DNA of 64,000 bases from Paludibacteraceae bacterium. GTDB lineage: Bacteria > Bacteroidota > Bacteroidia > Bacteroidales > Paludibacteraceae. The notes under the pieces are model-generated. The model made no database searches. It worked only from the letters and a program-made list of their open reading frames with translations, and had not been told where the DNA came from. Position numbers and translations under genes: made by a program. Position 1 is the stretch's first letter, and every line of letters begins with the position of its first letter. Shown in pieces: positions 5,061-39,404 of this stretch. The DNA lies in contig JAFYQJ010000017.1 of assembly GCA_017547145.1 (NCBI GenBank), positions 57,936 through 121,935 of the forward strand, in the 5' to 3' direction.

Positions 5061-7235
5061 ATGAAAAAAACAGTTCTTCTATTATTAAGTTTTATAGTAT
5101 TGATTGTGAATGTTAAGGCATCACAAGATTTTTTGAAAAAAATAACATCAGGATATTATAAATCTCAAACTATAACAAATATAATACCGCTTGCCGATGC
5201 CGAGCTTTATGCACAAATAACAGATAACGGTAAGCAAATTTTAGCCTATTCGTATAAGAAAGGAGATGTATGTGATACGATAATTGATATTGAAAAAATT
5301 AAAGGATGTCCAATTGATTCTATTGAAGGGTTTTTGCTAGATTCTTTGGAGCAACGAGTGTTGTTGTATGCAAATACAGAAAAAATATATCGTCGTTCAT
5401 TTAAAGCGGATTATTATGTTTTCAATCGTAAACGTAACACATTTGATGCCCTTTCGGAAAATGGGAAACAGCAATGTGCCGTGTTTTCACCAAATGGTCG
5501 CATGGTGGCGTTTGTTCGAGAAAACAATCTTTATATAAAAAAGTTAGATTTTAATACAGAAATAGCTGTAACTAAGGATGGCGAATACGGAAAAATAATC
5601 AATGGTATTTCGGATTGGTTATACGAAGAAGAGTTCGGTAAAACACAAATGTTTTCGTGGTCGCCAGATAGTAAATTGCTTGCTTTTTTGCGTTTAGACG
5701 AATCGGATGTAAAAACATTTTCATTTCAATGGTTTGGAGGAGAACAACTTTTGGACGATGGTTATCCAGTAGCACAAACTTATAAATATCCACGTGCAGG
5801 TACAAAAAATGCAAAACCTACTTTGCATGTATATGATGTGTTTTATAAATCGACAAAGACCCTTGATTTAGGTGAGATTGATGTGTATGTTCCTAAAATA
5901 GCATGGGGTTTAACCTCTGACGTTTTGTTTGCTTTTCGTTTAAATAGAAATCAAAATCAGTTAGACATGTTTGCTTTTAACCCTCGCTCAACAGTCGGTA
6001 AAATTACTTTGACCGAACGAAGTGAAAAATATTATGTCGATTACAATAATTTAAAAGCATTTGAAGTATTGCCCAACAATCGTATTGTGTGGATGAGTGA
6101 GGCTGATGGTTATTGTCATTTGTATTTGTATAATTGGAAAAATGGGCAAAAATTACAACAAATCACTTCAGGGAAATGGGACGTGACAGACTATTATGGT
6201 ACAGATGTAGCAAATAAAGTATTTTACTATCAATCTGCAGAATCATCGCCAATAGAACGAAAAATATATAGTATAGATTTGAAAGGGAAAAAGAAATGTT
6301 TAACTACAGAATCAGGTACGCATACAGCATTATTTAATGCTAAAAATACCTATTTTATTGATGAATTTTCGTCGCTTGAGCAACCTTCTATTTATAATGT
6401 AGTAAATCCGGTTGGTGCAAAAATAAGAGTGATAAAAGATAATGCTACTTTAAGAACTGATTTTGAGCAGAACGATTTACCTGAGAAAGAGTTTTTCTCG
6501 TTTACAACAAATGATGGAGTAGAATTGAATGGTTGGATGCTGAAGCCAACTGATTTTGATCAGTCTAAAAAATATCCCGTTTTAATGGTTCAGTATAGTG
6601 GACCTGCATCGCAAGAAGTACGCAATCGTTGGTCGATAAATTGGGAATATTATTTGGCTAAAAATGGTTATATGGTAGTTTGTGTCGATGGTCGTGGAAC
6701 TGGAGCAAGAGGTGAAGCATTTCGTAAATGTACCTATCGTAATTTAGGAGAAAAAGAAGTAGATGACCAAATAGCTACAGCTCAATATATTTCAACGTTA
6801 CCATTTGTGGATGCTAGTCGTATTGGCATTTGGGGATGGAGTTATGGTGGTTATATGGTGTTGTCGTGTATGATAAATGGGGATGGTATTTTTAAAACAG
6901 GTATTGCCGTCGCTCCTGTAACTGATTGGAAACTATATGATTCTGCTTATACAGAACGATTTATGAGACGTCCACAAGAAAATTTTAAAGGGTATGAATC
7001 GAGTTCTCTTTTAGATAAAGCAAAAAATCTTAAGGGTAATTTACTACTTGTGCATGGAACAGCCGACGATAATGTGCACTTGCAGAATACCATGTTGTTT
7101 TCGGAGGAATTGATAAATGCTGGTGTACAATTTGATATGATGCTTTATCCTAACAAAAATCATAGTATATTGGGTAATGATACACGTTTGCATCTTTATA
7201 CGAAAATGTCGCAATTCTTATTTAAAAATCTTTAG
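5061..7235 (+). CDS. dipeptidyl-peptidase IV (S9B prolyl oligopeptidase family)
   Basis: Signal peptide, a long propeller-like N-domain, nucleophile elbow GWSYGG, and HGTADDNVH plus a NHS-region His of the triad. Confidence 0.9.
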   Translation: MKKTVLLLLSFIVLIVNVKASQDFLKKITSGYYKSQTITNIIPLADAELYAQITDNGKQILAYSYKKGDVCDTIIDIEKIKGCPIDSIEGFLLDSLEQRVLLYANTEKIYRRSFKADYYVFNRKRNTFDALSENGKQQCAVFSPNGRMVAFVRENNLYIKKLDFNTEIAVTKDGEYGKIINGISDWLYEEEFGKTQMFSWSPDSKLLAFLRLDESDVKTFSFQWFGGEQLLDDGYPVAQTYKYPRAGTKNAKPTLHVYDVFYKSTKTLDLGEIDVYVPKIAWGLTSDVLFAFRLNRNQNQLDMFAFNPRSTVGKITLTERSEKYYVDYNNLKAFEVLPNNRIVWMSEADGYCHLYLYNWKNGQKLQQITSGKWDVTDYYGTDVANKVFYYQSAESSPIERKIYSIDLKGKKKCLTTESGTHTALFNAKNTYFIDEFSSLEQPSIYNVVNPVGAKIRVIKDNATLRTDFEQNDLPEKEFFSFTTNDGVELNGWMLKPTDFDQSKKYPVLMVQYSGPASQEVRNRWSINWEYYLAKNGYMVVCVDGRGTGARGEAFRKCTYRNLGEKEVDDQIATAQYISTLPFVDASRIGIWGWSYGGYMVLSCMINGDGIFKTGIAVAPVTDWKLYDSAYTERFMRRPQENFKGYESSSLLDKAKNLKGNLLLVHGTADDNVHLQNTMLFSEELINAGVQFDMMLYPNKNHSILGNDTRLHLYTKMSQFLFKNL

Positions 7236-9888: not shown

Positions 9889-12800
9889 ATGGCAAAAATT
9901 TTAGGTCTTGACTTAGGAACAAACTCAATAGGATTAGCATTGAGAAACACCGATAATGGTAATACTTTAACCGAACAATTAGAATTGTTTAGTTCTATAA
10001 TATTCAAATCTGGTGTAGGTACAGACAAATCAGGTGAGTTCTCTTATGCAGCAGAAAGAACAAAGAAACGTTCAGCAAGAAGACTATATCAAGCACGCAA
10101 ATACAGACTTTGGGCAACTCTTGACTTATTGATAAAAGAGGGTTTTTGTCCTTTGTCAATGGAAGATTTAGATAAATGGCGTAGATATGATAAATCAAAA
10201 GGCTTAAAAAGAGAATACCCAATTCACGCAACAGAATTTGAACAATGGATTCGTTTAGATTTTGACGAATATAGTGATTATTCAAGTCCTTATCAGTTGC
10301 GTGCAGAGTTAATGCAAAAACAATTTGACTTCACAAACCAAACCGACAGATATAAATTAGGTAGAGCCTTATATCATATTGCACAACATAGAGGATTCAA
10401 AAGCAGTAAAGGAGAAACAATAAAAGACCTTGAGGATTCAGCAACAGAAACTGATGTTATTGAATTAAAGAAATCCGAAATCAAAAAGTCCGGCAAGTTA
10501 GTTGAATATATGACTAAACACAATTTAGCTACTGTTGGTTGTGCTTTTGCTCAATTAGAAAATGAAGGTGTTAGAATTAAAGCAAGTGAATATCAAGCAG
10601 TACGCTCTCAATATAAAGATGAAATCAAAGCAATATTTGAATTCCAAAACGGATTAGATACCTCATCGAAGTTTTACAAACGTATAACAAGCGAAAAGAA
10701 AGGAGAAGGTACAATTTTCTACAAACGACCTTTACGCTCACAAAAAGGTAATATTGGCAAATGTACCTTAGAGCCAAACAAGGCACGTTGCCCTATTAGC
10801 CACCCAGAGTTTGAAGAATACAGAGCATGGTGTTTTATAAACAATATCAAGTATAGAGAAAACACCAATTCAGATTGGCAAACTTTGTCCTTGAAATTGA
10901 AACAAGAACTCTTTAACGATAAATTCCTAAGGATTAAAAAGAGTTTCGCTTTCCAAGAAATCAGAGAGTGGTTAGAAAAGAAATTGTCTTTAGAGTTAAT
11001 GTGTGATAAGAAAAACGGAACTATCAACTACAAAGACAAAACAAGTGTTTCTTCATGTCCTATATCAGCAAGATTAAAAAACATTTTAGGTAATGATTAC
11101 AAGGAATGGAATCTTCAAACAAAAGCCGAAAGATTAAACAAGGAAACCGGAGAAATACATAATAAAAGTTATGACTATTTAGACCTTTGGCATATTGGTT
11201 TTTCTTTTGATGAATTGGATAATATTGTAGATATTGCAACCAACACCTTGCAATTTGACAACAAACAAACCAACGGATTAGCAAAGTTATCCACAGAGAT
11301 ACAACAAGGTTATGCTAATTTAAGTCTTAAAGCAATTAGAAACATTAGTCGTTTCTTAAAACAAGGCTTTATTTATTCCGATGCAGTTCTTTTAGCAAAA
11401 CTGCCTGATATATTTAAGGACAAATGGGAAGTTGAGAAAGAAACTATTATAGCTGAACTTTCAAATATAATTGAACAAAATCGCATAGAGTCTTGTGTAA
11501 AAAGAATAACTAATGAACTTATTCATATTTACAAATCATTAGACTATGAGGAAAGATTTGCAGAACACGATACTACATATATATTACAAGAGCAAGATTG
11601 TTTAGATATAGATAATGCTATTAAGAAATACTATTCAGAAAATAGAATAGAAATAAAAGATGTATCAGAACAAGAATACGTAAAAGCAGAAGTAACAAAA
11701 GAATATCAAAACTTTTTTAATAGTTCAAAGAGGGATTATTGTAAAATACCTAAACTATCGGAATCATTAGCGAAATATCTATCTGAAAACTATCAATACT
11801 TAAGCACTAAAGACCTAAAAAAGATTTACCACCCTTCAATGATAGATATTTATCCTATGGCTAAAATGGAAGAAGTTGAAGAAGGTAGATACTTAAAACA
11901 ATTAGGCAGTCCTGTTATACCAGCTTTGAAAAACCCAATGGCAATGCGAGTTTTACATACTTTACGTTCTCAAATAAACTCCTTAATCAAAGAAGGCAAA
12001 ATAGATGAACACACTCGCATAGTTGTAGAAACAGCAAGAGAGATAAATGATGCTAATATGCGTTGGGCAATAGAAAAGTATCAAAGAGAAAAAGAAGAAC
12101 AAAACAAGGGTATAGAAAAGAAATTAGAAGAATATGGTTATGATGCGACAGATTACAATATAAGAAAAACAAAGATTTGGTTAGATAATGAGGATATAAT
12201 TAAAGAAGATGGAACAGAAAAACCAAAACAATATAAAATATCAAAAATAGAAAAGGATAATACCTTTAAGCTAAACAAAATAAAATATGAGTTGTGGCAG
12301 GAACAAGGATTTAGATGTATTTATACCGGAGAACTTATTAAACTTTCTGATTTATTAAATGATGACAAAATAGATATAGAACACACTATTCCAAGAAGTA
12401 TATCTTTTGATGATTCTTTGTCAAATCAGACTGTATGCTTTAAGCATTTCAACCGAAATATCAAAAAGAATCAATATCCTACTCAACTAAGTAATTACGA
12501 AGAAATCCTCCAACGCATTAAACCGTGGATTGAAAAGGTTAAGCACTTGGAGGATATGGTGAAGTTTTGGAAAGATAAAGCAGAGGCAACTCAAGATAAA
12601 GAGAGAAAGGGCTATTGTATTCGTCAAAGACACTTATGGCAAATGGAACTTGATTATTGGAAAAAGAAAGTTAGCTATTTCACCGAAGAAGAGTTTTCTC
12701 AATCATACAGAAACAATCAACTAAACGATACAAGAATAATAACTAAATATGCTTTTCATTATTTGAAAACTCTATTCAATAGGGTTGATGTACAAAATGG

Positions 12801-14169
12801 TGCAGCTACTTCTGCTTTAAGAAAAATTGTTGAGGGAGAGGATGCCTATCTAAAGAAAGATAGAAGCAAACACTCACACCATGCAATAGATGCTACTATA
12901 CTAACACTAATTCCTTCTGCAGATAAGAGAAATGAATTATTAGAACGCTATTATAAAAAAGAAGAAGCAGAGAGAATAGAAAAAGGCAGTGAAGTCGCAC
13001 AAATACTTAAAGCTAATTTTGAGAAAGAGAAGACAAAACTTTTACCAAAAGGCGTTTCGGAAGTAAGAGGGTTTATAGAAAGCAATATACTTGTTAATCA
13101 TGTTTCCAAAGACCAAGCCTTAGTACCAGCAAAAAGAAGAAAAAGGGTAAGAGGTAAAATAGTCCCTTTATTAGATTCACAAGGTAAAATTGTGTATGAA
13201 AGAGATGAAGATGGAACTATAAAGAAAGATAAATTTGGTAGACCTATTCCACAAGCAAAACAATGGATTACTGGTGATTGCATTCGAGGACAATTACATA
13301 AAGATTCATTTTTCGGAGCAATCAAGCGGTATAATTCCGATGAAATAACAATGGTAATAAGAGTAAAAATTTCTGACTTAAAAGAAGAAAAATTATTAAA
13401 CGGCATCATTGATGACAATGTAAAATCATCAATCCAAAGAGTCATGAATAAACGTAAAGCAGAAGGCAAAAAATGGGAAGTTGCAATCAATGAACCAATA
13501 TGGATGCTAAATAAAGACGGGGTAGAAATAAAACAAGACAAAAACGGTAGACCTTTATCTCCAATCAGGCACGTGCGTTATAAAGCTAGAGCGGGGAAGG
13601 GGTGTATGACATTTGAGAAAACACTCAAAATAAAAGACCAAACATACAAATCTTCTAAAGAATATAAAAACACATACTATGTTCAAAACGAAGGCAATTA
13701 CCTATGTCTATTGTATGAAGGAATACATAATAGCAAAATTGATCGACAATTTAGACTGATAAATTATTTTGAAGTGGTAAAGTTAAAAATCAAGGATGCA
13801 AACGAATTATGGCAAGAGCCGTATTTCAAAACATTAAGAAATGGAAATAAACAATATAATTTGTCTGCTATCATCAAAGTTGATACAAAAGTTCTTATGT
13901 GGAATAAAACTCCTGATGAGTTATTTGAACTACCAAAAAAAGAATTGTATAAAAGATTATTTGTTGTGGAGAAGTTCAATGAGCCCGGTTCTATATATGT
14001 ATATTTAAAGAACCATCTTGAAGCAAATAAAACAGTTAAGTATCAAACCTCTTTTGATTCAAATTCTTATCAGGGAGCATTAATGTTAACTGCAAATAAT
14101 TTGAATTGTTTGATTGAAGGACGAGATTTTGAAATTACACCTATAGGAGAAATAAAATTCTATGATTAA
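9889..14169 (+). CDS. cas9: Cas9, type II-C (Bacteroidetes large subgroup, 1426 aa)
   Basis: RuvC-I MAKILGLDLGTNSIGLAL. Arg-rich bridge helix KKRSARRLYQARKYR. RuvC-II RIVVETAREI. HNH DIEHTIPRSISFDDSLSNQTVC...NRNIKKN. RuvC-III HSHHAIDATIL. Followed by cas1-cas2 only. Confidence 0.95.
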   Translation: MAKILGLDLGTNSIGLALRNTDNGNTLTEQLELFSSIIFKSGVGTDKSGEFSYAAERTKKRSARRLYQARKYRLWATLDLLIKEGFCPLSMEDLDKWRRYDKSKGLKREYPIHATEFEQWIRLDFDEYSDYSSPYQLRAELMQKQFDFTNQTDRYKLGRALYHIAQHRGFKSSKGETIKDLEDSATETDVIELKKSEIKKSGKLVEYMTKHNLATVGCAFAQLENEGVRIKASEYQAVRSQYKDEIKAIFEFQNGLDTSSKFYKRITSEKKGEGTIFYKRPLRSQKGNIGKCTLEPNKARCPISHPEFEEYRAWCFINNIKYRENTNSDWQTLSLKLKQELFNDKFLRIKKSFAFQEIREWLEKKLSLELMCDKKNGTINYKDKTSVSSCPISARLKNILGNDYKEWNLQTKAERLNKETGEIHNKSYDYLDLWHIGFSFDELDNIVDIATNTLQFDNKQTNGLAKLSTEIQQGYANLSLKAIRNISRFLKQGFIYSDAVLLAKLPDIFKDKWEVEKETIIAELSNIIEQNRIESCVKRITNELIHIYKSLDYEERFAEHDTTYILQEQDCLDIDNAIKKYYSENRIEIKDVSEQEYVKAEVTKEYQNFFNSSKRDYCKIPKLSESLAKYLSENYQYLSTKDLKKIYHPSMIDIYPMAKMEEVEEGRYLKQLGSPVIPALKNPMAMRVLHTLRSQINSLIKEGKIDEHTRIVVETAREINDANMRWAIEKYQREKEEQNKGIEKKLEEYGYDATDYNIRKTKIWLDNEDIIKEDGTEKPKQYKISKIEKDNTFKLNKIKYELWQEQGFRCIYTGELIKLSDLLNDDKIDIEHTIPRSISFDDSLSNQTVCFKHFNRNIKKNQYPTQLSNYEEILQRIKPWIEKVKHLEDMVKFWKDKAEATQDKERKGYCIRQRHLWQMELDYWKKKVSYFTEEEFSQSYRNNQLNDTRIITKYAFHYLKTLFNRVDVQNGAATSALRKIVEGEDAYLKKDRSKHSHHAIDATILTLIPSADKRNELLERYYKKEEAERIEKGSEVAQILKANFEKEKTKLLPKGVSEVRGFIESNILVNHVSKDQALVPAKRRKRVRGKIVPLLDSQGKIVYERDEDGTIKKDKFGRPIPQAKQWITGDCIRGQLHKDSFFGAIKRYNSDEITMVIRVKISDLKEEKLLNGIIDDNVKSSIQRVMNKRKAEGKKWEVAINEPIWMLNKDGVEIKQDKNGRPLSPIRHVRYKARAGKGCMTFEKTLKIKDQTYKSSKEYKNTYYVQNEGNYLCLLYEGIHNSKIDRQFRLINYFEVVKLKIKDANELWQEPYFKTLRNGNKQYNLSAIIKVDTKVLMWNKTPDELFELPKKELYKRLFVVEKFNEPGSIYVYLKNHLEANKTVKYQTSFDSNSYQGALMLTANNLNCLIEGRDFEITPIGEIKFYD

Positions 14170-15097
14170 ACGCACGCTTTATTTCAGTAATCCCGCTTAT
14201 TTGTCTTTAAGGAATCAACAATTAGTAATAAAACTTCCGGAGGTGGAAACAAACGCTTCGCTTCCGGAAAGTTTCAAAGCAGATGCTACAAAGACAATTC
14301 CGATAGAAGACATAGGGATAGTAGTCTTAGACAACAAACAAATAACTATTACACAAGGAGTTTTAGAAGCCTTGTTAGAAAACAATTGTGCAGTTATCAC
14401 TTGTAACGAAAGCCACCTTCCAATTGGTATGCACTTGCCTTTGGTTGGCAACACCACACAAACCGAACGCATGCGTTATCAAATAGAAGCCTCTTTGCCT
14501 TTGAAAAAACAACTATGGCAACAAACCATAATTGCAAAAATACAAAACCAAGCCGCTGTCTTAAAACAAATGAGAGGAACAGAGGTTCGCAATATGCAAA
14601 AGTGGGCAACAGAAGTAAAAAGTGGAGATAGTGACAACCTTGAAGCAAGAGCAGCGGTTTATTATTGGCAAAACGCCTTTCCGATGATAGAAAACTTTAC
14701 ACGTTCAAGAGAGGGAGAGTCACCAAATAACCTTTTAAACTATGGATATGCCATACTAAGAGCAATAGTTGCAAGAGCCTTAGTGTCAAGTGGCTTGCTT
14801 ACAACCTTAGGCATACATCATAGAAACAAATACAACGCCTTTTGTTTGGCAGATGATGTAATGGAGCCTTATCGCCCATACGTTGATAAACTCGTAATGC
14901 AACTCTATGATAAATACCCCGATACACAAGAATTGACAAAAGAACTAAAAGCCGAGCTTTTGCAAATACCTGTATTAGATGTAACGATTAACAACAAACG
15001 AAGCCCATTGATGATTGCAGTTAGCACCACAACCTCTTCTTTGCAAAAGTGTTACGCGGGCGAATTACGCAAAATTATTTATCCAATAATACAATAG
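14162..15097 (+). CDS. cas1: Cas1 (type II)
   Basis: NLLNYGYAILRAIVARALVSSGLLTTLGIHHRNKYNAFCLADDVMEPYRPYVD is a Cas1 signature. It overlaps the cas9 stop by 8 nt. Confidence 0.93.
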   Translation: MIKRTLYFSNPAYLSLRNQQLVIKLPEVETNASLPESFKADATKTIPIEDIGIVVLDNKQITITQGVLEALLENNCAVITCNESHLPIGMHLPLVGNTTQTERMRYQIEASLPLKKQLWQQTIIAKIQNQAAVLKQMRGTEVRNMQKWATEVKSGDSDNLEARAAVYYWQNAFPMIENFTRSREGESPNNLLNYGYAILRAIVARALVSSGLLTTLGIHHRNKYNAFCLADDVMEPYRPYVDKLVMQLYDKYPDTQELTKELKAELLQIPVLDVTINNKRSPLMIAVSTTTSSLQKCYAGELRKIIYPIIQ

Positions 15098-15106
15098 ACT
15101 CTTAAA

Positions 15107-15439
15107 GTGCAACGATTTAGCGAATACAGAATTATGTGGGTGATGGTGTTATTTGATTTGCCAACCGAGACAAAGAAAGACAAGAAAGCTCATGCGAAAT
15201 TCCGTAAGCAATTATTAGAAGACGGATTTACGATGTTTCAGTTTTCTATCTATATACGCCATTGTGCCAGCAAGGAAAACGCTAATGTGCATATCAAAAG
15301 GGTAAAAAACTTATTGCCTGAATATGGAAACGTAGGAATAATCTGCATAACCGATAAACAATTTGGTGAAATAGAACTTTATCATTGTGGAAAGCAACAA
15401 AAAACTCAAACTAGTGGCCAACAACTAGAACTTTTTTAA
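15107..15439 (+). CDS. cas2: Cas2 (type II)
   Basis: [47 protein letters not shown] is a typical Cas2 ferredoxin-fold N-terminus. GTG start at 15107 (an ATG alternative lies at MWVMV). Confidence 0.9.
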
Positions 15440-15440
15440 A

Positions 15441-15558
15441 TATAAAAAATAGGTTCTTTCTTGAAAAAAGAACCTATAAATCAGTAACATTTTTAAATCT
15501 GTTTTTTGTTGTAAATGTTTGTCAATAAGCAACTTGTTGAAATCCTGTTGTTACTGAT
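15441..15558 (-). ncRNA. candidate array-terminal transcript (from the promoter inside the cas2-proximal repeat to the minus-strand terminator)
   Basis: Repeat-internal -7 box TATCTTTG (15570->15563) predicts a 5' end AUCAGUAACAAC. Those first 10 nt are exactly complementary to UGUUACUGAU encoded at 15480-15489. The RNA ends at the terminator 15449-15477. Confidence 0.3.
15449..15477 (-). terminator. intrinsic terminator oriented for leftward (minus-strand) transcription
   Basis: 11-bp stem ataggttcttt / aaagaacctat with a 7-nt loop. The U-tract (TTTTT) is present only on the minus-strand side (15448-15441). It lies 10 nt after the cas2 stop. Confidence 0.6.
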
Positions 15559-15748
15559 ATGTCAAAGATACAATTTTGAAAGCAATTCACAACATTTGCT
15601 GAAATTATCAACCTCTTGCGAATGTTGTTACTGATATGTCAAAGATACAATTTTGAAAGCAATTCACAACTCGTCCATCATATCGCTTACGGTCGATCCG
15701 GGTTGTTACTGATATGTCAAAGATACAATTTTGGAGGTAGTTTCACTA
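15547..15748 (-). CRISPR. type II-C CRISPR array: 47-nt repeats x3 (the last half-degenerate), 2 spacers (30 and 31 nt)
   Basis: Repeats GTTGTTACTGATATGTCAAAGATACAATTTTGAAAGCAATTCACAAC at 15547-15593 and 15624-15670. The third copy (15702-15748) is identical for its first 32 nt and then diverges. Spacers are at 15594-15623 and 15671-15701. Minus orientation is inferred from tracrRNA pairing and from the repeat-internal promoter. Confidence 0.9.
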
Positions 15749-19362: not shown

Positions 19363-20772
19363 ATGGCGAGAAATAAAAAAGCACTTCCGTTGTTGGAAGA
19401 TGTTGTGGTTTTAGATGTAGCTTCCGAGGGAAAAGCTATCGTGAAAAAAGACGATATGGTGATATTTACACAATATGCTGTTCCGGGCGATGTGGTTGAT
19501 TTGCAGATTACTCGTAAGAAAAATCGATATATGGAAGGTTCTGTCGTTAAGTTGAAGCAACCTTCGGAAAAACGAGTAGAGGCTCCTTGTAGGCATTATG
19601 GAATTTGTGGCGGTTGCAAATGGCAGATTTTACCTTACGAAGAGCAATTGAAATACAAACAAAAACAAGTTGTAGACAACCTAGAACGTATTGGTAAAAT
19701 TCAATTACCTGAAGTTTCGCCTATTTTAGGATCTAAAAAAATATACGGATATCGTAATAAATTGGAATTTACATTTTCGAATAAACGTTGGCGGACGTGG
19801 GAAGAAATTGCTTCAGGAGAGCCAATTACCGATATGGATGCTGTGGGGTTTCATATTCCTAATGCTTTTGACAAGGTATTAGATATAGAGCAATGTTTGT
19901 TGCAAGACGATATAAACAATCGTTTACGAAACGAAATACGCCATTATGCAAAAAAACATCGATTGGAGTTTTTCGATTTGCGAAATCAAAGCGGTTTTTT
20001 ACGTACAATAATGGTGCGTACAACATCTACAGGCGAGTTGATGCTTGTAATGGTGTTCTACAAAGAAGATAAGGCTGTACGTGTGGCTTTAATGAACCAT
20101 ATAGCCGAAATGTTTCCCGAAATAACTTCTCTTTTGTATGTAATTAATTCGAAAGCAAATGATACGATAACCGACCAAGAGGTTCGTTTGTTTAAAGGTA
20201 GCGATTGTATTTACGAACAAATGGAGGATTTGCGTTTTAAAATTGGGCCAAAATCGTTTTATCAAACCAACTCCGAACAAGCTTACGAATTGTATAAAGT
20301 AGTTCGTAACTTTGCAAACTTGACGGGCAACGAACATGTCTACGATTTGTATACAGGTACGGGTACGATTGCCAATTTTGTGGCCAAAAAAGCGAAAAAA
20401 GTAATTGGAATAGAGTATGTTCCTGAAGCTATAGAAGATGCCAAAGTGAACGCTTCGCTAAATGCGATAGAGAATACACTTTTCTTTGCAGGTGATATGA
20501 AAGATATTCTTACCGAAAGTTTTGTGGAAGAATATGGTCGCCCTGATGTTATTATTACTGATCCCCCACGTGCAGGTATGCACGAAGATGTGGTAAATGT
20601 AATTCTCAACGCTGCACCACGACGCATTGTGTATGTAAGTTGTAATCCTGCTACGCAAGCACGCGATTTGGCGTTGCTCGATTGTAAATATCGTGTTACG
20701 GCAGTGCAACCGGTAGATATGTTCCCTCATACGCATCATGTAGAAAATGTAGTTTGTTTAGAGTTGAAATAG
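19363..20772 (+). CDS. rlmD: 23S rRNA (uracil-C5)-methyltransferase RlmD/RumA
   Basis: TRAM N-domain, Fe-S cysteines CRHYGICGGC, SAM motif DLYTGTGTI, and catalytic ITDPPRAG...YVSCNP. Confidence 0.9.
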   Translation: MARNKKALPLLEDVVVLDVASEGKAIVKKDDMVIFTQYAVPGDVVDLQITRKKNRYMEGSVVKLKQPSEKRVEAPCRHYGICGGCKWQILPYEEQLKYKQKQVVDNLERIGKIQLPEVSPILGSKKIYGYRNKLEFTFSNKRWRTWEEIASGEPITDMDAVGFHIPNAFDKVLDIEQCLLQDDINNRLRNEIRHYAKKHRLEFFDLRNQSGFLRTIMVRTTSTGELMLVMVFYKEDKAVRVALMNHIAEMFPEITSLLYVINSKANDTITDQEVRLFKGSDCIYEQMEDLRFKIGPKSFYQTNSEQAYELYKVVRNFANLTGNEHVYDLYTGTGTIANFVAKKAKKVIGIEYVPEAIEDAKVNASLNAIENTLFFAGDMKDILTESFVEEYGRPDVIITDPPRAGMHEDVVNVILNAAPRRIVYVSCNPATQARDLALLDCKYRVTAVQPVDMFPHTHHVENVVCLELK

Positions 20773-35241: not shown

Positions 35242-37203
35242 ATGGAAGATAATAAAAATAAGGTTGGGTTGCCAGAAAATGCGACTCGTGAGTTGAAAGA
35301 TGGCGAAAAGTATAATCCGATTTTGCCACCAAACAAATGTGTGCCTGAAATTAGTTTTTATTCGGTAGCATGTGGGATTGTAATGGCCGTTTTGTTTTCG
35401 GCTGCTGCTGCATATTTGGGGTTAAAGGTTGGTCAAGTGTTTGAAGCTGCTATTCCTATTGCGATTATTGCTGTTGGAATTTCGAGTGCGACGCGTAGAA
35501 AAAATGCTCTTGGCGAAAATGTTATTATTCAGTCGATAGGAGCAAGTTCCGGAGTTATTGTAGCAGGTGCTATTTTTACGTTACCAGCTCTTTATATTTT
35601 GCAAGCTAAATACCCAGAGATAACGGTTAGTTTTATGCAAGTATTTTTGAGTTCTTTGTTAGGTGGAATTTTGGGTATTTTGTTTTTAATTCCATTTCGT
35701 AAATACTTTGTGAGCGATATGCACGGAAAATATCCGTTTCCGGAAGCTACGGCCACAACGCAGGTGCTTGTCTCTGGCGAACAAGGTGGAAGTCAAGCGA
35801 AACCGCTTATTTGGGCTGCGGCCATTGGCGGTTTGTACGATTTTGTTGTGGCAACTTTTGGTGCATGGAGCGAAACACTTACCTCGCGTATAATTCCATG
35901 GGGTGAATCGATAGCTCAAAAAGCAAAATTGACTTTTTCTATTAATACGGGTGCGGCTGTTCTCGGTCTTGGCTATATAGTTGGGTTAAAGTATAGTTTA
36001 ATTATTTGTGCAGGTTCGTTGTTTGTATGGTGGTTTATAGTTCCTTTGCTTGGAATGACAACGCAAGACTCTGTAATGTTGAGTCAAATGGATCCTGATT
36101 GGATTTTTGCTAACTATGCACGCTATATTGGTATTGGGGCTATTGCTATGGCTGGTGTTATTGGAATTGTAAAATCGTGGGGTGTGATAAAAGGTGCTGT
36201 TGGTTTGGCGAGTAAGGAACTTGGAAGCAAAGGAAAGGCTGTGGCACAAGCACTTCCTCGCACAGAGCGTGATTTGTCGATGAAGTTTGTGGTGTTGTCA
36301 ATTGTTGCAGCTCTTATCATTACATTCTTGTTTTTCTATTTTGGGGTGATAAATAATTTGTTCCAATCGCTTATAGCATTTCTTGTGGTGGCTGTTATTG
36401 CCTTTTTGTTTACTACGGTTGCTGCAAATGCTATTGCTATAGTAGGCTCGAATCCTGTTTCGGGTATGACGCTAATGACGCTCATTATTGCTTCGGTAAT
36501 ATTGGTGGCTGTTGGTTTGAAGGGTACAAGCGGAATGGTGGCCGCTATGGTAATTGGTGGCGTTGTTTGTACGGCGTTGTCGATGGCAGGAGGTTTTGTT
36601 ACCGACCTAAAAATAGGTTATTGGATAGGGAATACACCTGCAAAACAAGAAACTTGGAAATTCCTTGGTACGTTAGTTTCGGCAGCTACTGTAGGCGGAG
36701 TTATTATTATTTTGAATAAAACGTATGGCTTTACGGGCGACAATGCACTTGTAGCTCCTCAAGCTAATGCTATGGCTGCTGTGATAGAGCCGCTCATGAT
36801 GGGCCAAGGTGCTCCTTGGTTGCTTTATGGCGTAGGTGCAGTGTTGGCGTTGTTGCTCAACTTGCTTGGCGTTCCGGTTTTGGCATTTGCTTTGGGTATG
36901 TTTATACCATTGTCGTTGAATACGCCGCTTGTGGTGGGTGGATTGATTAGCTGGTATGTATCGTCGCGAACAAAAGATGCAGAATTGAATAATGCTCGCC
37001 AAGAAAAAGGTACGCTCATAGCATCAGGTTTGATTGCCGGTGGAGCTTTGATGGGGGTGGTGAGTGCCGCACTTAAGTTTGCCGATGTAGACCTATATAT
37101 GCCACAGTGGGCGGAAAGCAGCAGTGCTGCTATTTGTGGTGTGGTAGCTTATTTGTTGTTGATTGCTTATTTTGTTTGTGCAAGTATGCGTACAAAGAAA
37201 TAA
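35242..37203 (+). CDS. OPT-family oligopeptide transporter
   Basis: 653 aa with many TM segments and OPT-like conserved blocks (PFPEATA, GLKYSL). Confidence 0.8.
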   Translation: MEDNKNKVGLPENATRELKDGEKYNPILPPNKCVPEISFYSVACGIVMAVLFSAAAAYLGLKVGQVFEAAIPIAIIAVGISSATRRKNALGENVIIQSIGASSGVIVAGAIFTLPALYILQAKYPEITVSFMQVFLSSLLGGILGILFLIPFRKYFVSDMHGKYPFPEATATTQVLVSGEQGGSQAKPLIWAAAIGGLYDFVVATFGAWSETLTSRIIPWGESIAQKAKLTFSINTGAAVLGLGYIVGLKYSLIICAGSLFVWWFIVPLLGMTTQDSVMLSQMDPDWIFANYARYIGIGAIAMAGVIGIVKSWGVIKGAVGLASKELGSKGKAVAQALPRTERDLSMKFVVLSIVAALIITFLFFYFGVINNLFQSLIAFLVVAVIAFLFTTVAANAIAIVGSNPVSGMTLMTLIIASVILVAVGLKGTSGMVAAMVIGGVVCTALSMAGGFVTDLKIGYWIGNTPAKQETWKFLGTLVSAATVGGVIIILNKTYGFTGDNALVAPQANAMAAVIEPLMMGQGAPWLLYGVGAVLALLLNLLGVPVLAFALGMFIPLSLNTPLVVGGLISWYVSSRTKDAELNNARQEKGTLIASGLIAGGALMGVVSAALKFADVDLYMPQWAESSSAAICGVVAYLLLIAYFVCASMRTKK

Positions 37204-37226
37204 CGCAATTTTACAAAAAAATAAAA

Positions 37227-37260
37227 AGGCATTTAGTCAATTCGATTAAATGCCTTTTTT
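37227..37260. terminator. bidirectional intrinsic terminator
   Basis: 9-bp stem aggcattta / taaatgcct with an 11-nt loop. There is an A-run upstream and a T-run downstream, so it can stop the OPT gene (+) and any leftward transcript through the mini-array. Confidence 0.65.
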
Positions 37261-37290
37261 ATATCAAATAATAGATATGAATTTTTTTTA

Positions 37291-37524
37291 TGATTAGCAT
37301 TATTTAAAAATAAATGCTTTTACAGCCGTAATCCTTTCGGAGACGTTGTAGGACAAGTTGGATATCCATTTAAAAATAAATGCTTTTACAGCTTGTCCGA
37401 ATTTAGGACCTTTTCAAGCATCGTTGGATATCCATTTAAAAATAAATGCTTTTACAGCATGTGTGGTATAAGTTGTTGAAATCCAACGATTATATAAAAA
37501 ATAAATGAATTTTTTGAGTGCTTG
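37291..37524. CRISPR. mini CRISPR array (type V-associated): 36-nt repeats x3 with a 66-nt period, two bona fide 30-nt spacers plus a trailing spacer-like segment and a repeat remnant
   Basis: GTTGGATATCCATTTAAAAATAAATGCTTTTACAGC at 37357-37392 and 37423-37458. The copy at 37291-37326 shares only the 3' 25 nt. Spacers are at 37327-37356 and 37393-37422. 37459-37524 carries a repeat-like core AAAAATAAATG that is out of register. Confidence 0.8.
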
Positions 37525-37668
37525 AATATTGTAGAAACCATTGTTGCTACATATTTTTTAAAATTCAAACCTCAAACTAAGGCGTTCCAACACGCCCTTC
37601 CCAAAAAGGGAATAAAAAAATCATATCTAAAATTTCAAAGATCTCTGTATGTATAGGGCAAAGATAGC
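37525..37668 (-). ncRNA. candidate tracrRNA / guide-scaffold region of the type V locus (strand and ends uncertain)
   Basis: -7 box TATCTTTG (37666->37659) lies 2 nt after the effector stop. Three hairpins follow: ttccc-aaaaa-gggaa (37598-37612), ggcgt-tccaac-acgcc (37581-37596) and tgtagaaac-catt-gttgctaca (37530-37551). No ORF. Confidence 0.3.
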
Positions 37669-38397
37669 CTATTTTTTCTTTCTATCGACAACTTTTTTGC
37701 TCAAAGCAATGTTTCGTGCTGCATTCCAGTCGGCGTTAATGCCTTTGTATGTGCCATCTTTTTCTTGCTTGCCTTTCCCTTTTGTGCAATCAGGATTTTT
37801 ACAAATAAATATCGACTGGCTTATACGCTGTCCCTTTTCTCTGTGTCCGCAGAAACTGCAAGTCTGGCTTGTGTGATATGGGTCAATGTATCTTACTTCA
37901 ATTCCCGTAGCATTGGCCTTGTACTCAATCATTGTCTGCAATTCAAAGTACGACCAATAACGAAGAATGAACTTGTAGCCCTCATCCACTTCGTCGTTTT
38001 TGTTTCGACCAAATCCTGTGAGTCGTTCCATCTGAATTACGCCTGCTTTGTTTTTCAGGGCAAACTCAATAATTGATTTGCTAAAAATATGGTTTTGCAA
38101 GTGTACCCAATTTTTCTCCTTGTCTTGCAATCGCTTGAAAGCTTGCAATTTCTGATTCCTACCGTGTCCACCATTGGTAGTGTGGAGTAGGTTGCGTTGC
38201 AACTCCCTCTTTTGAGCCTGCATTCGCATACGCATATTCAGGAATTGCTCGCGTGAGCCGATGCTCATACCGCCATACTCATTGTCGTTGAGTGCTGCAT
38301 AAAGTGGTACGTTGATACCCAAGTCAACACCCACAACCCTCTCGGGGTTGAGATTATTTTGCACCTTTGGAATCTTTACAACCAGCAACAAAAACAT
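37669..38397 (-). CDS. C-terminal part of the Cas12f-like effector: split RuvC nuclease plus zinc-ribbon (TNB) domain
   Basis: VVGVDLGINVP (RuvC-I), GGHGRNQKL, AGVIQMERL (RuvC-II), ILRYWSYFELQTMIEYKA, CSFCGH...CKNPDC, and GINADWNAARNIA (RuvC-III). Confidence 0.8.
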   Translation of the reverse strand: MFLLLVVKIPKVQNNLNPERVVGVDLGINVPLYAALNDNEYGGMSIGSREQFLNMRMRMQAQKRELQRNLLHTTNGGHGRNQKLQAFKRLQDKEKNWVHLQNHIFSKSIIEFALKNKAGVIQMERLTGFGRNKNDEVDEGYKFILRYWSYFELQTMIEYKANATGIEVRYIDPYHTSQTCSFCGHREKGQRISQSIFICKNPDCTKGKGKQEKDGTYKGINADWNAARNIALSKKVVDRKKK

Positions 38398-38412
38398 TTT
38401 GTTATTTTTTGC

Positions 38413-39117
38413 CTAATTACCAACATCGTATTGTCCACTTAAAATACGCTCTACTATTTCACGATTATTACTTCTATCTCTGCCGAAGTTTAAATCCCAC
38501 TCCAGGCCTTTTGGAAATTTAACATAAATGTTATTAGGGTTGTTATCACGTCTGAAAATCCCTAATGTTTTATGCCCTGGACCAATTTTTATTCTGAAGG
38601 GTATAGGCATCCCTTTGCGATAATTTGGAACAGAACATTCTCCCTTTTTTATATCAATGCGTTTTTCGGTGTACTTTGATTTTTCTAAAATTAGACAATC
38701 CAAAATTTCGCCTGGAATCACATCTTTAAACTCTTTTCTAATCGTTTTTAGAATGGTATTGTGTTCTTGTGAAATCCCAAGAAATTCTTTTTTCTGTTCA
38801 GTGAAAAGCTTTTCTAATTCTTTCTTTTCTTGTTTTAGATTGTCTATTTCTTCTTGTGAAAGTTTGTCTCGTTTGCAGTGTTTGAGAATCTTTTCAATTT
38901 CTTGATATCTTGGGTTTGTAGCATACATACGAGATTCATACTCATCATTAAGAAAATAATGAGACATTATGCGGTTTGCTGCTTTATATAAATTGTCGTT
39001 TATCTCATTCCAAATGCGGTACTCTTCTTGGTTGCGAAGATTGGCTTCTTCGCTATCTCCGTGACGATGTAGATGTACCTCAATTTTTCTAGTAATGCAA
39101 GTAAATTCTGTTGCCAT
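38413..39117 (-). CDS. N-terminal part of the Cas12f-like effector (WED/REC-like region with a coiled-coil insertion)
   Basis: 234 aa. KGMPIPFRIKIGPG...IYVKFPKGLEWDLNFGRD...ILSGQYDVGN resembles the wedge strands of Cas14/Cas12f that precede RuvC-I. Confidence 0.6.
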   Translation of the reverse strand: MATEFTCITRKIEVHLHRHGDSEEANLRNQEEYRIWNEINDNLYKAANRIMSHYFLNDEYESRMYATNPRYQEIEKILKHCKRDKLSQEEIDNLKQEKKELEKLFTEQKKEFLGISQEHNTILKTIRKEFKDVIPGEILDCLILEKSKYTEKRIDIKKGECSVPNYRKGMPIPFRIKIGPGHKTLGIFRRDNNPNNIYVKFPKGLEWDLNFGRDRSNNREIVERILSGQYDVGN

Positions 39118-39138
39118 TTTTTTATATGATGAAATAAA

Positions 39139-39243
39139 CTATTTGAAACACATTGTTATACTAACCATAAATAGTATAAAAATACCAACGATAAAGCAGA
39201 TGGCTGCTATTATTTTTAAGGTGTTTTTTTGCTTTTTATCCAT
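39139..39243 (-). CDS. possible 34-aa single-TM peptide upstream of the effector
   Basis: ATG..TAG ORF MDKKQKNTLKIIAAICFIVGIFILFMVSITMCFK. A TAACTTTG box (39278->39271) lies upstream, and the ORF stops 21 nt before the effector ATG. It is below the ORF-track size cutoff. Confidence 0.25.
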   Translation of the reverse strand: MDKKQKNTLKIIAAICFIVGIFILFMVSITMCFK

Positions 39244-39404
39244 ATTGAAATAGTTATTTAGTTTACCCAACAAAGTTAATTTTTTTTATAGATAATGCGA
39301 CTTTTTTTGTTCTGTAATTCTTCGCATAATATTGTGCGTATTTTGGGCTATACCTTCGAAAAGTTTTCCTATTTTTGCAAGATAAAGTGTATGCATACAA
39401 ATAT

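Follow-up and report, generated by a model that had tools for sequence, protein, structure and literature searches.

The closest described relatives of the nuclease discussed here belong to the Cas12f-MG119 family of type V-F nucleases, known from sheep-gut and other metagenomes; these proteins are obligate dimers, have a T-rich PAM, and use guide RNAs 129–156 nt long (PMC13186708). Structures are available for one of them, Al3Cas12f (Cas12f-MG119-28, Alistipes sp.; PDB 9NZO and 9NZR; Guan et al., Nat Struct Mol Biol 2026; PMC13186708). This protein is an active obligate dimer in which WED, a REC region of long helices, a WED hairpin, RuvC, and a TNB zinc ribbon follow one another, and it is encoded beside a minimal array, with no adjacent adaptation genes. 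A second member, Cas12f-MG119-3 (486 aa, sheep gut metagenome; PMC13186708 Supplementary Data 1), has an intact gene and a guide RNA that was verified in cleavage assays (PMC13186708). The next-closest solved structure is that of CnCas12f1 (Clostridium novyi; PDB 8HR5), which is described as the closest fold and has extended REC helices (PMC13186708).

The locus that we compare with these systems lies in a 64,000-nt stretch of a Paludibacteraceae genome (GenBank assembly GCA_017547145.1, contig JAFYQJ010000017.1, positions 57,936 to 121,935), referred to below as the window. One minus-strand frame runs from an ATG at 39117 to a TAG at 37669–37671 and is broken by a single internal TAG at 38413–38415, which five codons (AKNNK) separate from an ATG at 38395–38397. 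Gene callers report two ORFs (234 and 242 aa) instead of the single ORF of ~480–490 aa that is typical of the clade. A preliminary description, made from the letters alone, had already placed the internal stop, the five codons, and the ATG in one frame, and we confirm that frame on the minus strand. The features of the locus, in window coordinates, are as follows.

37291 to 37458, minus strand (the gene's direction): mini CRISPR array, its repeats and spacers read in the sequence.
37502 to 37638, minus strand: tracrRNA gene, recognized by identity to validated tracrRNAs and conserved in loci L004 and L006.
37669 to 38397, minus strand: C-terminal remnant ORF of 242 aa, with the last WED strand (MFLLLVVKIP), RuvC, and the TNB zinc ribbon.
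38185 to 38187, minus strand: Leu codon CTC in place of CGC (Arg315), from codon comparison with the nearest intact alleles.
38395 to 38397, minus strand: ATG that opens the downstream ORF, derived from AGG.
38413 to 38415, minus strand: chimeric TAG at a deletion junction, from DNA alignment with L002, L003, and L004, the codon table, and the protein alignment.
38416 to 39117, minus strand (38413 to 39117 with the stop): N-terminal remnant ORF of 234 aa, ending ...YDVGN.

Judged by profile and sequence similarity, the gene is a type V-F effector of the Cas12f-MG119/Al3Cas12f clade. A profile of the window protein and 17 homologues matches PDB 9NZO_B/9NZR_A with 945 bits over residues 1–486, and identity to Al3Cas12f is 67% (332/493). 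CnCas12f1, by comparison, is matched with 263 bits; it is far more distant in sequence, has a shorter gRNA stem 2, and does not come from Bacteroidales. The window shares with Al3Cas12f the full-length architecture, the minimal array, and the lack of adjacent adaptation genes. In contrast to Al3Cas12f, its reading frame is interrupted, the equivalents of S237–Q240 are gone, a TAG stands for E241 and a Leu for R317, and the single chain is expected, from its sequence, to be inactive.

Between them, the two remnant ORFs retain most of what defines the family. The N-terminal remnant holds the first WED strand, the long REC helices, and most of the WED strands, and in the protein alignment it keeps R49, Y60, R63, and F112, the counterparts of dimer-interface residues reported for Al3Cas12f (PMC13186708). 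In the C-terminal remnant the RuvC triad is present (D at 38323–38325, E at 38026–38028, and D at 37729–37731, that is D265, E364, and D463 in window numbering), as is the zinc-ribbon motif CxxC...CxxxxC (C420/C423/C439/C444, same numbering). These residues fall in invariant alignment columns, and the preliminary description was right to call them intact. The C-terminal ORF matches Pfam Cas12f1-like_TNB (PF07282) with 55.5 bits and NCBIfam guided_TnpB with 139 bits, and the conceptual read-through product matches guided_TnpB along its full length with 145 bits. The guided_TnpB match reflects the shared superfamily only. We considered, and rejected, a mobile TnpB (an IS200/IS605 omega-RNA nuclease): the gene is single copy in the genome, a sister species has it at the equivalent site, with an OPT-family transporter gene on one side and a polysaccharide-synthesis gene on the other, and it is accompanied by a repeat-spacer array instead of one guide. 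Copy number and conserved position together thus indicate a resident CRISPR locus.

The guide RNA components also appear to be those of the clade. Window positions 37638–37502 (minus strand, 137 nt) are identical at 117 of 141 positions to the validated 136-nt tracrRNA of Cas12f-MG119-3, the closest validated guide RNA, and at 81 of 113 positions to the Al3Cas12f tracrRNA. The window, L004, and the sister species locus L006 all have this region in conserved form, and by eye the Cas12f-MG119-3 tracrRNA closely matches the L006 intergenic region. The 3' end of the tracrRNA, UUCAUUUA, pairs with UAAAUGGA of the repeat. The array comprises two exact 36-nt repeats (37458–37423 and 37392–37357), two 30-nt spacers (37422–37393 and 37356–37327), and one degenerate terminal repeat (37326–37291), with a spacing of 66 nt; L004 carries a similar array. 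The window repeat ends ...GGAUAUCCAAC where validated crRNAs end ...GAAUAUCCAAC, and the 3' handle of the clade is present (GGATATCCAAC in the window); the Al3Cas12f repeat has the same 3' end as the window's, ...AUAUCCAAC. A search of Rfam returned no known RNA family above threshold in 37200–39400.

Two side observations concern the noncoding stretches of the locus. The tracrRNA 3' end is separated from the array by a stretch (37459–37501, TTTTTTATATAATCGTTGGATTTCAACAACTTATACCACACAT) that contains GTTGGATTTC. This segment, which is similar to the reverse complement of the repeat 3' end (GTTGGATATCC) and is conserved also in L004 and L006, may represent either another anti-repeat or a repeat in decay. 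A small minus-strand ORF (39139–39273; 44 aa from a TTG, ~34 aa from an ATG) immediately precedes the Cas12f gene; it encodes one hydrophobic helix and has no NCBIfam match. The 220-nt spacer upstream of the Cas12f start does not align with L006, in which the gap is only ~100 nt, and the small ORF is probably not a conserved part of the Cas12f system.

The nature of the internal stop becomes clear when relatives are aligned. A homologue search with the read-through product yielded about 2000 full-length relatives (481–488 aa), the best of them 97% identical. In the protein alignment the relatives read ...YDVGN-SSIQ-E-AKNNK-R-FLLLVVKIP..., and the window reads ...YDVGN-*-AKNNK-M-FLLLVVKIP..., that is, four codons (SSIQ) are absent and the stop stands in place of the relatives' Glu. 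At the DNA level (alignment with L002, L003, and L004, all three coding for intact proteins) the relatives have GGT AAT TCA TCA ATT CAG GAG GCA and the window has GGT AAT TAG GCA. The 12 missing nucleotides are CATCAATTCAGG, in the context GGTAATT[CATCAATTCAGG]AGGCA, and the junction of the deletion allele reads GGTAATTAGGCA, its intact counterpart GGTAATTCATCAATTCAGGAGGCA. The deletion takes bases 2 and 3 of Ser235, the whole of Ser236-Ile237-Gln238, and base 1 of Glu239. Although the number of bases lost is a multiple of three, the deletion is one base out of register with the codons, and the codon formed at the junction thus consists of the T of the ancestral TCA (Ser235; position 38415) and the last two bases of GAG (Glu239; 38414–38413), and spells TAG. 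Placement of the deletion is unique and its flanks lack microhomology, as read from the DNA alignment; we thus rejected slippage between direct repeats as the mechanism.

A four-residue motif occupies the site in all 135 relatives in which it could be located (SSIQ in 101, SSLQ in 16, STIQ in 13, and others), and the deletion state is therefore derived, as judged from this comparison. S235 and Q238 are invariant in a 44-sequence alignment. The preliminary description had asked what codon orthologues carry in place of the stop: all relatives have a sense codon, Glu in 125 of the 135, and none has a stop. The list of codons one substitution away from TAG that it offered does not apply, given that the TAG is a chimeric junction codon, and its view of a single amber codon with no other lesion gives way to a 12-nt deletion with loss of SSIQ, together with R315L (see below).

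AlphaFold2 is insensitive to deletions this small, and the model that we used is of an intact, 97%-identical protein, built from the 44-sequence alignment (mean pLDDT 79.8, and 87–90 in the deletion region). In this model residues 234–239 (NSSIQE) and 245–254 (RFLLLVVKIP) form the two strands of a beta-hairpin, directly followed by the strand that bears the RuvC-I Asp (261–269). The deletion is thus predicted to remove the first strand of the WED hairpin that precedes RuvC-I, and the downstream ORF to open at the first residue of the second strand. An earlier reading of the two halves as continuous with the wedge strands does not hold, one of the two hairpin strands being missing. In Al3Cas12f the counterparts of the lost residues are S237–Q240, E241 aligns with the window TAG, and R317 is the counterpart of the window Leu. 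E241K is among the Al3Cas12f variants tested (PMC13186708, supplement data), in a set aimed at residues close enough to DNA or gRNA for hydrogen bonding, most of which belong to the WED domain (PMC13186708).

The same broken allele is found in other assemblies. An ENA MEGAHIT contig (ERZ28019155, 326 kb) is 100% identical to the window across 20.7 kb, and a Logan contig (SRR12529255) is identical across 4.2 kb. A scaffold from another BioSample (ERZ28662813; SAMN15830059) has the same junction and the same ATG, and differs from the window by one SNP in 3.6 kb (AAA to CAA, K203Q). In all, at least three sample accessions have yielded independent assemblies with the deletion allele. A cluster listing places its 234-aa product on 4 contigs and its 242-aa product on 5; by position look-ups, the exact products are on 6 and 7 contigs, respectively.

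Intact 486-aa alleles are present at the same site in L002, L003, and L009, three other accessions. Their flanks are 99.1–100% identical to the window and the gene itself 97.6–98.3%, from which it follows that broken and intact alleles segregate within one species; the gene is more diverged than its flanks. The sister species (G055/L006) has an intact syntenic copy with 71% amino acid identity. The clade is sporadic among species representatives, occurring in 2 of 151 genomes of the family and 2 of 401 of the order. It can also be observed that the intact-allele contigs L002, L003, and L009 are short (1.6–2 kb) and end 20–90 nt past the gene stop, at the start of the tracrRNA and array, which suggests that the assembly graph breaks there from co-occurring strains with different arrays or alleles.

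Relative to three intact alleles, the window allele has 12 window-specific synonymous codons and about 5–6 nonsynonymous changes, and no stop or frameshift beyond the deletion junction. The differences cluster in two patches, at 39016–39084 (codons 12–34) and 37756–37899 (codons 407–454, with the TAG counted). The window version of the first patch is common to other intact alleles (P0124 and P0127), and the pattern resembles a mosaic produced by recombination between alleles of different strains.

We consider it very probable that the gene is a recently inactivated, strain-specific allele, that is, an early pseudogene, of a Cas12f-MG119/Al3Cas12f-clade nuclease. In the sequence of events that we envisage, one out-of-phase 12-nt deletion would have removed SSIQ and created the TAG in a single step. 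Translation from the normal start would then stop after residue 234 and give a REC/WED fragment that lacks RuvC, so the nuclease would be lost; the residues removed being the first strand of the WED hairpin, any read-through product would be damaged as well. The event is presumably young, falling within the divergence of one species, which would explain why tracrRNA, mini-array, and the remainder of the frame are still intact; the lack of further stops or frameshifts likewise indicates a young event. We infer that activity has been lost and that the loss is neutral or tolerated. It should be noted that some observations sit less comfortably with this explanation. The frame is clean apart from the deletion and R315L, with no sign of long decay; an ATG that arose 15 nt past the stop would be compatible with selection for production of the C-terminal half; and the presence of the allele in several samples means that it is not strongly deleterious. 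The preliminary description had taken additional decay as the mark of an ordinary pseudogene, and what we find of it is mild: the missing strand and R315L. Its suggestion of a very recent nonsense inactivation stands as to the recent inactivation and falls as to the nonsense substitution, the lesion being a deletion.

Breakage of this kind has an independent parallel. Another lineage (L013:1501–2933, on 7 contigs) has a Cas12f gene of this clade with a frameshift in the REC region, residues 1–103 lying in frame 1 and residues 133–486 in frame 3, and on these frames we read it as an independent pseudogenization. The picture given by such breakage is one of ordinary, recurrent decay of a dispensable defence gene.

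The downstream ATG raises the question of whether the gene could instead encode a functional two-chain Cas12f, as had been proposed. The REC/WED chain (234 aa) would bind the tracrRNA:crRNA and dimerize, the RuvC/TNB chain (242 aa) would be produced by re-initiation at the ATG, and the two would assemble on the guide RNA scaffold. The ATG is itself derived: R245M (AGG to ATG) is seen only in the broken allele, Arg245 is present in the three nearest intact alleles, and among 135 relatives the site is R, I, K, C, V, F, L, or Q, never M. It lies 15 nt past the stop, and the sequence between them is rich in A (GCAAAAAATAACAAA); surroundings of this kind favour initiation in Bacteroidota. In the model, the ATG would coincide exactly with the residue that begins the next beta-strand. 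A crude post hoc count puts the chance of such an ATG at ~2% (~21 window-specific changes in 1449 nt, a 30-nt target, and 4/90 changes giving ATG). The allele persists in several samples; it retains its catalytic and zinc residues and lies beside an intact tracrRNA and array.

A precedent for two chains held together in this way does exist, in that split Cas9 lobes reassemble on an sgRNA. To our knowledge, engineered split Cas9 (REC and NUC lobes on the sgRNA) is the only known precedent for a two-chain, guide-held RNA-guided nuclease. It differs from the window, however, in being engineered, in being cut between lobes without loss of residues, and in belonging to a different protein family.

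Against a split nuclease, a whole near-invariant WED strand is missing in the window and not merely cut. The arginine lost through R315L (CGC to CTC, 38185–38187) is near-invariant (R in 143 of 146 relatives, and invariant in the 44-sequence alignment); from its conservation, the change is probably damaging, and it is specific to the broken allele. No other member among about 2000 relatives is split here: the shorter ones start or break elsewhere, or sit at contig ends and are artefacts of that position. The variability of position 245 in the family also means that R245M may be neutral, may have preceded or accompanied the deletion, or may be a by-product of the same mutational event. Overall, we regard a naturally split nuclease as unlikely. 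A variant of the idea, in which AGG to ATG was selected after the deletion and the halves reassemble on the intact tracrRNA:crRNA scaffold, seems to us just as doubtful. If true, type V would gain its first naturally split effector, with a split site at the WED/RuvC boundary that would be of interest for split miniature editors.

Alternatively, the N-terminal REC/WED fragment alone might have been kept for a nuclease-independent role, such as guide RNA binding or service as a dimerizing decoy. The fragment keeps all the Al3Cas12f dimer-interface residues and most of WED, beside an intact tracrRNA and array. However, this chain would, according to the model, lack the barrel-closing WED strands, and there is no sign of selection on the fragment. 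The two known deletion-allele variants differ by one SNP, which is too few changes for a dN/dS estimate after the break, and that SNP, at codon 203, is nonsynonymous and lies in the fragment itself. We think a retained role for the fragment very unlikely.

Programmed or leaky readthrough of the TAG, with the stop acting as an expression valve, would give low levels of a full-length protein four residues shorter than normal. In its favour, only one stop interrupts a frame that is otherwise open before and after it. Against it, there is no tRNA-CUA among the 45 tRNAs found by Aragorn in the 90%-complete genome, and so no suppressor. TAG is moreover an ordinary terminator here, closing 86 of the 857 open frames that span 300 codons or more (10%), and the preliminary description had correctly listed it as ending genes at 7233–7235, 15095–15097, 20770–20772, and 37669–37671. 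Both observations led us to reject TAG recoding, in agreement with its view that genome-wide recoding is not the explanation. No orthologue has a stop or a conserved readthrough element at the site, intact alleles exist in the same species, and the readthrough product would still lack the SSIQ strand. Programmed readthrough, another of the earlier suggestions, is thus highly improbable.

Finally, a sequencing or assembly artefact concealing an intact gene, which had also been put forward, is extremely improbable: scans of a metagenome-contig and a genome-contig collection for the junction pattern gave no further matches (records near the window's genome may be masked in them), but the identical junction recurs in contigs from different pipelines and accessions, one of which carries the independent SNP at codon 203 noted above, and a clean 12-nt deletion is atypical of short-read error.

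The locus was also considered as a self-disarmed nuclease, in the sense of inactivation driven by autoimmunity. Both spacers match only their own array within the genome, and neither has a match in 50,697 phage records or, by exact 22-mer, in IMG/VR. With no self-targeting spacer found, we rejected this cause, and the self-disarming part of the original proposal falls away.

The genome has a second CRISPR-Cas system. At 9889–15748, 23 kb away, lies a type II system with a Cas9 of 1426 aa (TIGR01865, 361 bits), Cas1 (cas1_NMENI, 322 bits), and a short ORF of the size of cas2. Repeats of 47/48 nt at 15546–15593 and 15623–15670, together with a degenerate copy at 15701–15748, make up a mini-array with two spacers only. 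This system is apparently intact, and it may make Cas12f redundant.

Returning to the early pseudogene as the preferred explanation, we suggest that annotation treat the locus as one disrupted Cas12f pseudogene of the Cas12f-MG119/Al3Cas12f clade; labels such as two separate genes, recoding, or a novel split nuclease should be avoided. The clade is already known and well studied, and the significance of the case extends little beyond annotation. It does provide a natural example of a deletion of in-frame length that makes a stop codon at its own junction. Thus, when a lone stop is encountered in an otherwise perfect frame, the DNA of relatives should be checked before readthrough is invoked. 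For the biology of the organism, the occurrence of intact and broken alleles of a compact CRISPR nuclease in one gut species that also has Cas9 is a small piece of evidence on how redundant defences turn over.
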